In this document: one piece after another, positions 33,535 through 37,011 of the stretch
Layout of the letters: the number at the start of each line of letters is the position of its first letter
Position numbering within the stretch: position 1 is the first letter of the stretch
Origin: Deinococcales bacterium
Lineage (GTDB): Bacteria > Deinococcota > Deinococci > Deinococcales > JAAFIG01
Reading direction: 5' to 3'
Assembly: GCA_043778225.1 (NCBI GenBank)
Contig: JAYWGM010000094.1
Span: 64,001-128,000, forward strand
DNA: 64,000 bases
Program-made: the position numbers and the translations under genes
Notes under the pieces: model-generated
What the model was told of the DNA's origin: nothing
Seen by the model: only the letters and a program-made list of their open reading frames with translations
Database searches by the model: none

Positions 33535-33942
33535 ATGGCGACAAAATCCAACCCCATGACCTCGGTCGAAGTCAGTGCTGACCCCAGCCTCGAGCAAGTC
33601 CGCGATATTTTATTTGGGCAACAGCAGCGCAGTTTTAATAACGATTTATCGGTGCTGGAGGCTCGAGTTTCGGCACTTGAAAAACGTTCTGAGGACATTG
33701 AGCGCGAACTGGCAGCTACTAAAGATGACCTCGAGTCCAAAATTCGTGCCGAAAGCCAACGCCAAGACAAAGCCTTAAATGCCGAAGCCAACCGCTTAAA
33801 TAAGCTGATTGCCTCAGAAGTTGCTGCACTGCAAGCCCAGCATCAGCAGAGTATGGCAGACCTCGAAGCCCTGCGCCTCAAAGACCGCGCTAAATTGGCT
33901 GCCCTGATGGTGGCGCTGGCACAGCAACTCGAGGCGGACTGA
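33535..33942 (+). CDS. coiled-coil protein, first gene of the small-GTPase module
   Basis: LEQVRDILFGQQ N-terminal motif, heptad pattern, DRAKLAALM..LA C-terminus. Confidence 0.8.
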   Translation: MATKSNPMTSVEVSADPSLEQVRDILFGQQQRSFNNDLSVLEARVSALEKRSEDIERELAATKDDLESKIRAESQRQDKALNAEANRLNKLIASEVAALQAQHQQSMADLEALRLKDRAKLAALMVALAQQLEAD

Positions 33943-33944
33943 GC

Positions 33945-35288
33945 GTGACCGCCCCTTTGGATAAAAGCCTGCCAGATGTGTCTTTTGATGCGCTGCGCGA
34001 AGTGCTTTTGTCCGAAGAACGCAACCGCCTTGGTTTGGTCGAACATCGGCTCGATGACCCCGAAGTTCGAGCTACTGAACTTGCCGAAGTGATGAGCGAA
34101 GCCATGACTTTGGCGGCAAAAGATGCCCGTTTTGCACGGGTCTTAGCGCCAACCATCGAAAAAGCCTTGTTTGAATCGGTGCGGGCGAACCCAGAAGGGC
34201 TTGCCGATGCCCTTTTTCCAGTCTTGATGCCAACCATTCGGCGTGTCGTCTCGAGTTTAATCGAACGCAGTTTTGAAAATTTTAATCGGGTACTCGAGGT
34301 TTCGGTTTCGCCGCGCAGCTTTGCTTGGCGGGTTGAATCTTGGCGCACGGGCAGACCATTTTCGGAAATCGTTTTGTTTCATACCATTCAATACCGAGTC
34401 GAACAAGTGCTGCTGATTCACCGCCAAACAGGCTTGTTGCTGACTCAGGTTGGGGTCAATGTCAGTGCCGAAGCCGATTTGGTCAGTGCGATGCTAACGG
34501 CGATTCAAGACTTTGCTCGAGACAGTTTTCAAATGGCAGACGAAAGCATCCGCACTTTTAGAATTGGTGATTTAACTGTACTGGTCGAAACCTCGCCATA
34601 TGGCACGGTGGCGGCGGCGGTGCGTGGCACACCACCACTCAAACTGACCGACAACTTAGCGGTGGCGCTCGAGACGATCGAAATGCGTTTCCCGATTGCT
34701 TTAAGCGAATTTGTTGGCGATACCTCGGCTTTTGAAGCCACCAAGCCAATCCTCGAGATGTGTTTGGCGACTGTCTATATGCAGCCAACGGCGGTGCAAA
34801 AACCCAAACCCGCCGCTAATCCAATGGTTCGTTATGCGCTTCCACTGCTAACAGTGGCGCTTTTGGCTGGGGTGGCATGGTGGGTCTGGAACGCTTACCA
34901 AAATAGCCAATGGCAAAGTGCAGTTCAGGCGCTGCGGCTCGAGCCGGGGTTTTTAATCATCGAAGATAATCAAAATCGTTTGGTCGGTCTGCGCGATCCC
35001 TTAGCTCGAGACCCACAAGTGGTGCTTGATTCTTTGGGCTACCCTGATGTGCCACAAGTCTGGGGTGAGTATCAATCTCTGGATTCGCAACTGACGATCG
35101 AACGCGCTCGGGTGGCACTTGAACCAGCCTCGAGTACCGCCGTTGAATTGCGCGGACAAACCTTGGTCTTTAGTGGACAAGCCACCGAAGCCTGGGTAAA
35201 ACGCGCTAAACTAATCGCACGTGGATTAACCGGAATCTCGGGGGTAGACTCGAGAGCCGTGACTTTGGTGCAAGTGGAGAAGAAATGA
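33945..35288 (+). CDS. single-pass membrane protein: cytoplasmic helical and longin/roadblock-like domain, extracytoplasmic BON-like domain
   Basis: YRVEQVLLIHRQTGLLL...DLVSAMLTAIQDFARDSF; one TM helix (ALPLLTVALLAGVAWWVW); C-terminal LVFSGQA..AW...A....GISGVD. Confidence 0.7.
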   Translation: MTAPLDKSLPDVSFDALREVLLSEERNRLGLVEHRLDDPEVRATELAEVMSEAMTLAAKDARFARVLAPTIEKALFESVRANPEGLADALFPVLMPTIRRVVSSLIERSFENFNRVLEVSVSPRSFAWRVESWRTGRPFSEIVLFHTIQYRVEQVLLIHRQTGLLLTQVGVNVSAEADLVSAMLTAIQDFARDSFQMADESIRTFRIGDLTVLVETSPYGTVAAAVRGTPPLKLTDNLAVALETIEMRFPIALSEFVGDTSAFEATKPILEMCLATVYMQPTAVQKPKPAANPMVRYALPLLTVALLAGVAWWVWNAYQNSQWQSAVQALRLEPGFLIIEDNQNRLVGLRDPLARDPQVVLDSLGYPDVPQVWGEYQSLDSQLTIERARVALEPASSTAVELRGQTLVFSGQATEAWVKRAKLIARGLTGISGVDSRAVTLVQVEKK

Positions 35289-35797
35289 CTCAAGAAACAA
35301 TTTTACAATTTAAGATTTGTCTGCTCGGGGGGTCGGCGGTTGGTAAATCGAGTCTGATTGCCCGTTTTGTCCACAGTATTTACTCGTCGCAGTACCACAC
35401 CACAGTTGGGGTACGAATCGAAAAAAAGTTGGTGCGTAGCCCCACAGGCACAGCCAACTTGATGATTTGGGACATCAACGGCGAAGATGCCTATCAAAAA
35501 GTCCAAACGACTTATTTGCGTGGTATGGCGGGCTATTTGTTGGTTGCCGATGGCACACGCGCTCAGACGATCGACGAATGCCTTAAACTTCATGCTCGAG
35601 CCACCGAAGGGTTTGGCGCATTACCGGCGTATTTACTAATCAATAAATCTGACCTCGAGTCCGAATGGCGGGTAGACATGACACAACTTCAATCCCTTGG
35701 CATCCAAATCCTCAAAACCAGTGCTTTAAGCGGCGATAATGTCGAAACTGCCTTTACGCAACTGGCACAACAAATGCTGCAAAAGGCGCGACCATGA
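35285..35797 (+). CDS. Ras-superfamily (Rab-like/Rup-type) small GTPase
   Basis: KICLLGGSAVGKS (G1), TTVG (G2), WDING (G3), NKSDL (G4), TSAL (G5); 170 aa, stand-alone. Confidence 0.93.
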   Translation: MTQETILQFKICLLGGSAVGKSSLIARFVHSIYSSQYHTTVGVRIEKKLVRSPTGTANLMIWDINGEDAYQKVQTTYLRGMAGYLLVADGTRAQTIDECLKLHARATEGFGALPAYLLINKSDLESEWRVDMTQLQSLGIQILKTSALSGDNVETAFTQLAQQMLQKARP

Positions 35798-37011
35798 ACA
35801 CCGTTGCGACTGTTCCCGCAGAACTCCTTGAAAGCGCTGGTTGGACTGCCTTTGAATGGCTTTTAAGCGGCGAATTAATTTTGATTACTCGAGCGCCCAA
35901 ATGGATGCAGTCTTTGATTGTTGGCGGGCAACTCGAAGCCAGTGCCTCACCTTTTTTAGATAACTTTTTAATTGATGCACGGGTGTTTTGGGCAGAAGAA
36001 AAAGTTGGGCGCTTACGCAGTGGCATCTGGCTCGAGCCAAGCGGTGCTGGTACAGAACAAGCCCTCGAAGCGACAGCCGTTCACAGCCAAGAACGGGCAT
36101 ATTTACTGCTCGAGGTTTTGGGCGGCAAATTTAACGAACAGACCAAAATTTTACAAGCGGCTCGAGAATCACACCTTGAATCGCAGCATTTGCGCCAAGA
36201 AGTGCGCGACCTCAGAGACCAAAGTAAAAGCCTTGAGCGTTCCATGCTCGAGTTGGCTGGCAAGATGACCAGCAGCAGCCAAATTCAAGCCGAGGCTTTA
36301 CTTTACGATGCCAAACGCGCCGCCGAGCGCTCGGAAAAAATTCAGAGTCAATACCTTGCCCAACTCGCCCATGAACTCCGCACCCCGTTAAGCGTGATTC
36401 TATGGATTTCGGACACGCTCGAGAATTCTTCGCTCGACTCCGAGCAACGCCAACAACTGGTTCAACTTGAGGATGCCGCCAAGCACTTAAACTTGGTCAC
36501 GACCGACTTGCTCGATTTCTTTAAGCTCGAGGCTGGCGCACGCCCACCAGTTCGCGCCCTTTTTGAGCTCGATGAATTTGCCCGTTCTTGTATGCGCGAC
36601 CTACTCGAGACCGCCAAAGCCAAAGGCATCGAAATGAATGTTCGCGCCCCCGAAAGCCTACCGATTGCGGCTGACCAACGCCAACTGCGCCAAGTGCTGC
36701 ACAATTTACTTGCCAATGCGATTAAATTTACCGATGCTGGCGGCAGCATCATCATCGAAGCACTGGCACTTGGCAGCAACCTCGAGCTTAGGGTCATCGA
36801 CACAGGCATCGGCATTGCGCCAAGCGATATTCCCAAGCTCTTTATGCCCTTTGGCAAACTCGAGAACCCAGAATACAATCCCGACGGCACAGGTTTAGGC
36901 TTGGTGATTGCCCAACGGATTGTTGAAGCCCACGGCGGTAGTATTAAAGTCTCGAGCGCTCCGGGCTTAGGCAGTACCTTTACGGTGATTTTGCCACAGG
37001 TGTTAAATTAG
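35794..37011 (+). CDS. cytoplasmic histidine kinase (uncharacterised N-terminal domain, coiled coil, HisKA, HATPase)
   Basis: LAHELRTPL, QVLHNLLANAIKFT, DTGIGI, GTGLGL, G.GSTFTV; no TM helix. Confidence 0.95.
   Translation: MNTVATVPAELLESAGWTAFEWLLSGELILITRAPKWMQSLIVGGQLEASASPFLDNFLIDARVFWAEEKVGRLRSGIWLEPSGAGTEQALEATAVHSQERAYLLLEVLGGKFNEQTKILQAARESHLESQHLRQEVRDLRDQSKSLERSMLELAGKMTSSSQIQAEALLYDAKRAAERSEKIQSQYLAQLAHELRTPLSVILWISDTLENSSLDSEQRQQLVQLEDAAKHLNLVTTDLLDFFKLEAGARPPVRALFELDEFARSCMRDLLETAKAKGIEMNVRAPESLPIAADQRQLRQVLHNLLANAIKFTDAGGSIIIEALALGSNLELRVIDTGIGIAPSDIPKLFMPFGKLENPEYNPDGTGLGLVIAQRIVEAHGGSIKVSSAPGLGSTFTVILPQVLN

Follow-up and report, generated by a model that had tools for sequence, protein, structure and literature searches.

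A probable Rup1 GTPase operon of a Deinococcales bacterium and a proposed route from its membrane protein to a soluble histidine kinase

The Rup family of small GTPases and its Group 1 (Rup1) were defined by Wuichet and Sogaard-Andersen (2014, Genome Biol Evol 7:57; PMC4316618). According to the accessible text of that paper, Group 1 GTPases have no G3 glutamine and their genes lie in a neighborhood that runs from DUFY (a coiled coil) through DUFX (an unknown domain with a transmembrane (TM) helix and often an OmpA domain) to rup and an output gene. The outputs described there are diguanylate cyclases/phosphodiesterases or histidine kinases, with an N-terminal region that carries an invariant Gln proposed to act in trans, and the four proteins were proposed, in what is a computational description, to form a conservon-like, membrane-linked signaling system leading from the envelope to the output. 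No Rup protein had been characterized at that time, as stated in the same text. Apart from PMC4316618, our search of the later literature found only phylogenetic mentions of Rup1, and subscription journals may hold more; a 2024 preprint (10.1101/2024.02.28.582541) handles Rup1, in its accessible part, only as a clade. Here, we analyze a four-gene operon that encodes a coiled-coil protein, a membrane protein, a Ras/Rab-like small GTPase and a histidine kinase in a 64,000-nucleotide stretch of DNA from a Deinococcales bacterium (assembly GCA_043778225.1, contig JAYWGM010000094.1, positions 64,001 to 128,000 of the forward strand), hereafter the window.

The actinobacterial conservon (CvnA-D) and the mycobacterial Mfp conservon likewise combine a small GTPase, a Roadblock-fold protein and a histidine kinase in an operon without a response regulator, an analogy already drawn in the text of PMC4316618. 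Conservons, however, are defined by an MglA-type GTPase, a membrane-bound HAMP kinase, a separate soluble Robl_LC7 protein and CvnC (DUF742), and none of these was found in the window operon, in which the soluble kinase lacks a HAMP domain, no protein matches Robl_LC7 or DUF742, and the GTPase is Rab-like. The MglA-MglB polarity switch (with RomR/RomX) also pairs a bacterial Ras-superfamily GTPase with a partner of the Roadblock/longin fold. Unlike the MglA family, which has a G3 motif without the conserved Asp and is coupled to MglB, the window GTPase keeps this Asp (D63), is Rab-like and has no MglB coupling; its putative partner is embedded in the membrane, and the module is tied to two-component and other signaling outputs rather than to motility. 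In eukaryotes, Rab GTPases work with longin-fold guanine nucleotide exchange factors (GEFs) such as Mon1-Ccz1, TRAPP, CPLANE/Fuzzy-Inturned and DENN, and the window resembles this pairing in that a Rab-like GTPase gene adjoins a gene for a protein with a predicted longin fold, which superposes on eukaryotic longin GEF subunits with Z scores of 11.5 to 13.5 as a predicted structure. Sequence kinship to these GEFs is not detectable, and the longin fold is here a domain of a bacterial membrane protein. Longin domains are described as derived from MglB-like Roadblock domains in the accessible passages of a 2012 paper on DENN proteins (PMC3521125), in which a bacterial longin partner of Rab-like GTPases goes unmentioned.

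The operon spans positions 33523-37011 of the window and consists of four co-directional genes on the + strand, as given by the open reading frame (ORF) list (Table 1). The first gene ends in TGA, and after a 2-nt gap (gc) the second opens with GTG; the two remaining junctions are ATGA overlaps, so that the tight coupling described in the earlier note was found exactly as claimed. The start given there for the first gene, 33535, is a real in-frame ATG, yet it is the second one, and the ORF opens at 33523. The G+C content is uniform over the operon region, at ∼0.50-0.53.

Table 1. Coordinates of the operon genes and of their domains in the window
Feature	Position	Strand	Remarks
Coiled-coil protein (DUFY)	33523..33942	+	139 aa; alternative start 33535
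Single-pass inner-membrane protein (DUFX)	33945..35288	+	447 aa, GTG start
Membrane protein, predicted cytoplasmic helical region, aa 12-147	33978..34385	+	Secondary structure of AlphaFold2 model
Membrane protein, predicted Longin/Roadblock-fold domain, aa 148-280	34386..34784	+	VIA-align and Foldseek on model
Membrane protein, TM helix and extension, aa 293-332	34821..34940	+	Kyte-Doolittle; modeled helix
Membrane protein, predicted periplasmic BON-like modules, aa 336-441	34950..35267	+	Foldseek on model
Ras/Rab-like small GTPase, very probably Rup1 type	35285..35797	+	170 aa; Pfam Ras, motifs
Histidine kinase, whole ORF	35794..37011	+	405 aa
Kinase N-domain (HKN), aa 1-140	35794..36213	+	Predicted fold, invariant columns
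Kinase HisKA (dimerization and histidine phosphotransfer, DHp) with H193	36343..36537	+	Pfam 9e-14; H-box HELRTP at 193
Kinase HATPase_c catalytic domain	36673..36999	+	Pfam 5.8e-28; N-box, G1, F-box, G2

Compared with Group 1 Rup systems as described in the text of PMC4316618, the locus has the same order of DUFY, DUFX, Rup and output genes, and the model that we favor refines the membrane-linked signaling complex proposed there. The GTPase is a single-domain Ras-superfamily protein with G1 to G5, its 170 residues falling within the 150-240 aa of the group, and its G3 motif (63-DINGE-67) keeps the Asp and is missing the catalytic Gln. There is no MglB gene, with no Pfam match to Robl_LC7 in any of the four proteins. 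A coiled-coil ORF lies directly upstream of a DUFX-type gene, whose product has one TM segment and is missing OmpA, and the output carries an invariant N-terminal Gln (Q121 in 32/32 sequences of the histidine-kinase N-domain). The locus very probably belongs to a Rup1 system, an assignment that rests on these six features and not on a tree or on fetched reference Rup1 sequences. It is thus a Deinococcales copy of a module that has already been described but is experimentally uncharacterized. The module itself is not new, and the novelty that the earlier note had attached to it falls at least in part, the four-gene neighborhood being already present in the text of PMC4316618 as Group 1 Rup. Table S2 of that paper has 27 Group 1 rows, of which none is from Deinococcus-Thermus, and, as far as this table goes, the window holds the first Deinococcota member.

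Some features set the window copy apart from the published description. It has no OmpA domain, as is also the case for the Bacteroidetes and Chloroflexi rows of PMC4316618, and its coiled-coil protein has one repeat. The DUFX domain and the output's N-terminal region are left as unknown in the text of that paper, whereas here they are modeled as longin and PAS-like folds, respectively; an invariant Arg stands beside the invariant Gln, and outputs of more types are recorded.

The GTPase matches Pfam Ras (2.7e-28) and Roc (1.2e-19). From reading of the sequence and from invariant alignment columns, its motifs are G1 at 15-GGSAVGKS-22, switch I with T39/T40, G3 as given above, G4 at 120-NKSD-123 and G5 at 146-SAL-148. 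Every one of the 60 best solved relatives listed is a eukaryotic Rab, Ypt or Sec4 protein (Rab1B, Rab1A, Rab25, Ypt1, Sec4), with Rab1B at the head (E value of 3e-21), which bears out the view of the earlier note that this is a complete G1-G5 protein more similar to Rab and Ras than to MglA. The note had also placed a Glu at the position of the catalytic Gln and, in the alignment, Glu67 indeed stands under the catalytic Gln of Rab1B. This column is occupied by Glu in 33, Arg in 14 and Gln in 8 of 68 family members.

Residue 17 of the GTPase (35333-35335), the equivalent of Ras Gly12, is a Ser in the window copy; of 69 relatives, 53 carry Phe here, 8 carry Tyr and 5 carry Ser. A bulky residue at this position is unusual for a Ras-type P-loop. 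Residue 17 falls inside the predicted interface with the kinase N-domain described below.

We anchored a survey of gene neighborhoods on the membrane-protein family, which gave 82 loci (80 from metagenomes and 2 from Deinococcales genomes), and ran profiles of the four window proteins against the stop-to-stop ORFs of these loci. A scan of genome contigs with the single protein gave 2 close loci only, and the survey rests on the metagenome loci and on a search of the phylum. Where there was room (150 bp or more beyond the end of the membrane-protein gene), the GTPase gene was found directly downstream (-60 to +200 bp, same strand) in 64 of 67 loci, or in 65 of 67 if the frameshifted locus L040 is counted; the three exceptions are L032, L082, and L040. 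In the profile search, every one of the 76 loci with room had a coiled-coil homologue immediately before the membrane-protein gene, and each of the 6 loci without it has less than 450 bp of upstream sequence. The four-gene arrangement is therefore far beyond chance.

In L040, the GTPase gene is in its usual place. An apparent fusion of the membrane protein and the GTPase in this locus was rejected as an open-frame artifact of a frameshifted high-GC copy (L040:683-2983), in which the frame shifts after about residue 430 and Arg/Pro-rich nonsense runs open into the GTPase frame; the frameshift is either an assembly error or the mark of a pseudogene.

Within the Deinococcota, the membrane protein is patchily distributed, being detected at an E value of ≤1e-10 in 36 of 364 genomes: in 7/7 genomes of the window's genus, in 18/26 of one other genus and in 0/111 of the largest genus. 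Nine loci from this phylum (seven from genomes of the same genus and two others) keep the gene order as far as their contigs reach.

In contrast to the constant first three genes, the fourth is an exchangeable output. The kinase N-domain, which we call HKN, was detected in 36 of 82 loci; its gene immediately follows the GTPase gene in 31 of them and the membrane-protein gene in 1 (L082). By Pfam, 25 HKN proteins from these loci comprise stand-alone HKN (8 loci), HisKA-HATPase_c kinases, hybrid kinases with REC and Hpt, a PAS-PAS hybrid kinase and an HD_5 (HD-GYP-type) protein. An exhaustive profile search with HKN found 1362 representative clusters at an E value of ≤0.001, 1179 of them at ≤1e-10. 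Among the best 75 of the 1362 clusters, 49 are histidine kinases, 3 carry HD_5, 2 Hpt only, 1 PAS only, 1 a SpoIIE phosphatase, and 1 a Ser/Thr kinase, while 18 have no other Pfam domain. Both outcomes, a constant trio and an N-domain that recurs on outputs other than the kinase of the window (HD_5, Hpt, SpoIIE, Ser/Thr kinase), are those that the earlier note had put forward as a check of its reading.

The 19 HKN-less loci with room after the GTPase gene yielded 17 candidate downstream ORFs for scanning. These encode PP2C phosphatases (6), adenylate/guanylate cyclases (2), PAS proteins (2), sigma-54 activators (2), and a histidine kinase (1), and the remaining ORFs had no match or were in the wrong frame. 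The downstream ORFs of L013 and L051 were discarded as wrong frames (Arg-rich, no Pfam match), and we also left out of the output count an amidohydrolase ORF in L033, which is in a different frame and begins before the stop of the GTPase gene. The PP2C proteins (L006, L008, L017, L019, L021, and L030) have no extra N-domain, and in the sigma-54 activators of L027 and L047 an unnamed region of ∼145 aa replaces the usual receiver; neither type of output is listed in the accessible text of PMC4316618.

A second N-domain of ∼130 aa (alignment A6; L012, L035, L038, L050, L052, and L068) occurs on adenylate cyclase, PAS and histidine-kinase outputs or alone. Its invariant residues are P5, P7, G37, G38, W96, L100, D101, Q113, and Q114, and it ends in an LLLDAT...QQ helix reminiscent of HKN. 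We considered it as a divergent HKN, and at the sequence level homology between the two is not supported: the HKN profile with filters off reached it only at E values of ≥0.027, and hhalign of A3 against A6 gave a probability of 1.2% and an E value of 0.044 over 37 helix columns only. In some kinases (P0129, P0134, P0144, P0150, P0172, P0194, and others), HKN begins at about residue 140-160, and the stretch before it has no Pfam match at an E value of ≤1e-5; L080 looks alike.

The membrane protein belongs to a family with at least 1319 homologues at an E value of ≤0.001, most of them ∼590 aa long with a C-terminal OmpA domain (PF00691) that the window protein does not have. Searched against Pfam and NCBIfam, the 447-aa protein matched no family, Longin and Robl_LC7 included, and the matches of its profile to Protein Data Bank (PDB) sequences were confined to the OmpA/BON part of its relatives. 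It has a single hydrophobic segment at about residues 293-315 (Kyte-Doolittle windows at 293-297), with Lys and Arg on its N-terminal side. The AlphaFold2 model, built on a 119-row alignment, has a mean predicted local distance difference test score (pLDDT) of 85.2 and shows helices at residues 12-147, a beta-beta-alpha-beta-beta-beta-alpha-alpha unit at 148-280, a helix at 293-332 and alpha/beta modules at 336-441. The cytoplasmic region has 27 invariant columns in 119 sequences that are ∼40% identical and come from across phyla, and its conserved columns include P96, I98, R99, W128, R129, and G136.

The unit at residues 148-280 is made of strands 148-159, 165-170, 204-216, and 220-228 and helices 176-195, 232-248, and 261-271, the first helix containing the conserved stretch 183-MLTAIQDFARDSF-195. 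We compared it exhaustively with 48,161 chains using VIA-align, for which Z scores of 7-8 are, by the tool's own statement, typical of models without a real match. The matches were the longin domain of VAMP7 (Z 13.8; root mean square deviation of 2.6 over 121 aligned residues), CPLANE (13.5), Sec22 (12.5), Mon1-Ccz1 (11.8-12.0), TRAPP (11.5), a Lokiarchaeota Roadblock-Longin protein (11.4), an Asgard Roadblock protein (10.7), and MglB (10.0). Foldseek found AP sigma subunits, Mon1-Ccz1, LAMTOR/MP1-p14 and MglB, with E values of 1.7e-4 to 1.9e-3. Because the Z scores lie clearly above the background, a longin/Roadblock fold is supported for this unit at the level of the predicted structure. The earlier note had called the protein longin/roadblock-like, a label that holds for the predicted fold and not for sequence families, as seen from the Pfam and NCBIfam searches.

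The periplasmic part was modeled with a pLDDT of ∼96, and Foldseek matched it to BonA (5.8e-5), OsmY (1.3e-4) and DolP (3.9e-4), with template modeling scores that are low over the whole model. Pfam detected no BON domain by sequence in the membrane protein; PF04972 is found in 83% of the members of a related Atlas cluster, which we take as a lead only.

The coiled-coil protein has weak Pfam matches of the coiled-coil type, all under the cut-off. In most relatives it contains two repeats of ∼70 aa and, in the window's genus, this copy included, a single repeat. The coiled-coil and membrane proteins have in common a short N-terminal motif, roughly L..lR.lL.G.e.R (33523-33640 and 33945-34030), which could be a docking motif or a chance similarity; hhalign of the two families aligned 20 columns only, with a probability of 13% and an E value of 0.0021.

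The kinase has its HisKA domain at residues 184-248 and HATPase_c at 294-402, with H193, the N-box, G1, F-box and G2 all in place. As the earlier note had observed, it has no TM helix, with no hydrophobic window in a Kyte-Doolittle scan, and its N-terminal domain resisted naming, since residues 1 to ∼135 matched nothing in Pfam or NCBIfam and the HKN profile had 0 matches among PDB sequences at an E value of ≤1. Besides Q121, the residues P35, A62, W66, R124, and L128 are invariant in 32/32 HKN sequences. The model of HKN (pLDDT of 88.5 on a 32-row alignment) consists of a PAS-like unit at residues ∼9-108 followed by a helix at 112-139, on which Q121, R124, and L128 are located. The 50 rows listed by VIA-align are nearly all PAS-type domains, the best being the PAS domain of TraJ with a middling Z score of 8.5, while Foldseek gave short LOV proteins with a best E value of 1.3e-3, and there was no Pfam PAS match. 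With reserve, we regard the predicted fold of HKN as PAS-like.

We modeled the GTPase (28-row alignment A4) together with HKN (28-row alignment A5, from the same loci), GTP and Mg. The interaction prediction score from aligned errors (ipSAE) was 0.82, 0.81, and 0.82 in three runs, compared to 0.01 for the best of 3 controls, and the complex thus passes its controls; among solved complexes 116 of 157 attain the mark for this score, and among mismatched pairs 2 of 215 do, counts that are only roughly valid here given our own alignments and the ligands present. At least 94% of the contacts are common to the three runs, and the partner pLDDT is at least 86. The earlier note had proposed modeling of such a complex, and contacts were predicted on switch I and switch II as well as on the P-loop. 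To this interface, the GTPase contributes K10, S17/A18 (the Ras G12/G13 positions in the P-loop), Y37-I45 (switch I and beta2), M60, D68-Q71, Q74, T76 and R79/G80 (D68-G80 being switch II), R92 and Q94. HKN contributes P53, F54, N57, F58, I60, D61, S76-L80 and positions 113-131 of the helix, among them Q121, R124, and L128. Confidence is highest for the pairing of V43 and R44 with I78, W79, and L80, which indicates a strand-to-strand pairing; T39 is also paired confidently with L120, Q121, and R124. The predicted interface consists of conserved residues on both partners, including the motif that the earlier note had quoted from the kinase N-terminus. No structure that pairs a small GTPase with a PAS domain is known to have been solved, so that a pass by memorization seems unlikely.

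Taken as a whole, a mechanism in which a Rup1 module connects the membrane protein through the GTPase to the kinase is probable. The coiled-coil and membrane proteins would be the constant, envelope-facing part and form a core with the GTPase, the membrane protein being oriented with a cytoplasmic N-terminus and periplasmic BON-like modules. The longin-fold domain would probably regulate the Rab-like GTPase as a platform for nucleotide exchange or for a GTPase-activating protein (GAP). Judged by the model of the complex, it is fairly likely that the GTPase binds the PAS-like HKN of the soluble kinase, which would occur via switch I, beta2 and switch II. The helix with Gln121 and Arg124 would join HKN to the DHp domain and sit against switch I. 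Since this helix is predicted to continue toward DHp while lying against switch I, nucleotide-dependent binding should alter autophosphorylation. Gln121 and Arg124 may also complete the GTPase active site in trans and so time the signal, and we put forward tentatively that the kinase N-domain is the GAP. As to direction, we lean toward a signal that runs from the membrane to the kinase. The earlier note had drawn an envelope-to-kinase circuit, of which the constant core, the occurrence of HKN on varied outputs and the predicted complex stood up to analysis, while its biochemical steps, namely, binding, the direction of signal flow and the catalytic effects, are what we infer.

Several observations weigh against this mechanism. 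The Glu67 column is variable and holds Gln in 8 of 68 relatives, and a trans-acting Gln would therefore not be needed in all members. The gene order has exceptions: L032 and L036 have the GTPase gene upstream on the opposite strand, L082 has no GTPase between the membrane-protein gene and the HKN gene that directly follows it, and 4 loci have HKN encoded upstream of the coiled-coil protein. The ipSAE is the model's own confidence, obtained from shallow 28-row alignments, and ligand contacts are unscored, so that a reach of Gln121/Arg124 to the gamma-phosphate cannot be deduced from it. The PAS scores of HKN (Z 8.5; E 1.3e-3) are near what unrelated models reach. No response regulator adjoins the operon, as the earlier note had pointed out. 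Finally, our literature search found no experimental study of any Rup1 member, in agreement with the note's remark that Rup proteins are little characterized, and subscription journals may hold more.

As the main alternative, the same components could also be read in the opposite direction, with the PAS-like domain as the sensor that controls the GTPase, for example as its GAP, and the GTPase acting on the longin membrane protein. The envelope would then be altered via peptidoglycan or membrane tethering by BON/OmpA, and the kinase would be a parallel output of the sensor. PAS-like domains are typically input domains, neither BON nor OmpA is a classical ligand sensor, both being structural modules for binding, and stand-alone HKN proteins of ∼150-200 aa are common (18 of the best 75 clusters without another Pfam domain; 8 loci). 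Having no output domain, such proteins are not enzymatic effectors but could regulate the GTPase. A varied enzymatic fourth gene on a constant trio is, however, what one usually sees where a constant sensor/transducer is combined with exchangeable outputs, and the predicted interface uses switch I/II as effectors do, although GAPs do likewise. We therefore consider this reversal of the flow unlikely.

It is less likely still that the membrane and coiled-coil proteins only anchor or localize the GTPase, with no envelope signal being sensed and with nucleotide cycling that is intrinsic or set solely by the kinase N-domain. Roadblock/longin scaffolds of the LAMTOR/MP1-p14 type are indeed among the fold matches, and the window copy has lost OmpA and keeps just the BON-like modules. 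Against a passive anchor, the 27 invariant columns in the cytoplasmic region of 119 sequences exceed what such a role would need, and the closest folds include catalytic Rab GEFs (Mon1-Ccz1, TRAPP, and CPLANE) and the GAP MglB. That the genes are chance neighbors or an MglA/MglB-type polarity module is hardly credible, given the synteny in 64-65 of 67 loci, the presence of G3 Asp63, the 60 best solved relatives being eukaryotic Rab/Ypt/Sec4 proteins and the missing Robl_LC7 match, even though MglB is among the fold matches (Z 10.0) and Table S2 of PMC4316618 has an MglA/MglB pair among its Deinococcus-Thermus genomes.

The preferred route from the membrane protein through the GTPase to the kinase leaves the overall picture of Rup1 unchanged, and the analysis makes the system testable. 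Three domains that are unnamed in the literature receive names from their predicted structures, a longin fold, a PAS-like fold and BON-like modules, and the kinase N-domain emerges as a portable module that many outputs carry. The specific interface predicted between the two proteins can be addressed by point mutants in switch I, switch II and the P-loop on one side and in P53/F54/N57/F58, S76-L80, and Q121/R124 on the other.

Among bacterial proteins, Rup1 GTPases resemble eukaryotic Rab, Ras and Rho most closely. A further suggestion, which we regard as speculative and somewhat doubtful, is that Rup1 constitutes a complete bacterial Rab-like cycle, with a membrane longin regulator and a PAS-like combined effector and GAP that supplies Gln and Arg in trans. 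If so, Rup1 would be a bacterial counterpart, and possibly an antecedent, of the eukaryotic pairing of Rab with longin GEFs, and the longin/Roadblock partnership would extend from MglA and Rag to the bacterial Ras/Rab branch. If the longin domain regulates the GTPase, this would bear on the origin of the eukaryotic Rab-plus-longin-GEF logic.

Scans of positions 33300-37600 for regulatory signals gave 1 promoter-like site, compared to a mean of 3.0 in shuffled sequence, and 2 terminator-like sites, compared to a mean of 6.1; neither is above chance. About 2-6 kb upstream of the operon, on the + strand at 27588-31420, lie ORFs for a CheA-like hybrid kinase (848 aa, with a receiver-like end) and a CheB-like protein (379 aa), both judged by eye from their translations, and no link between them and the operon was found. 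After the kinase gene, two small + strand ORFs of 77 and 141 aa overlap by 4 nt (37345-38000), a layout that is typical of an antitoxin-toxin pair.

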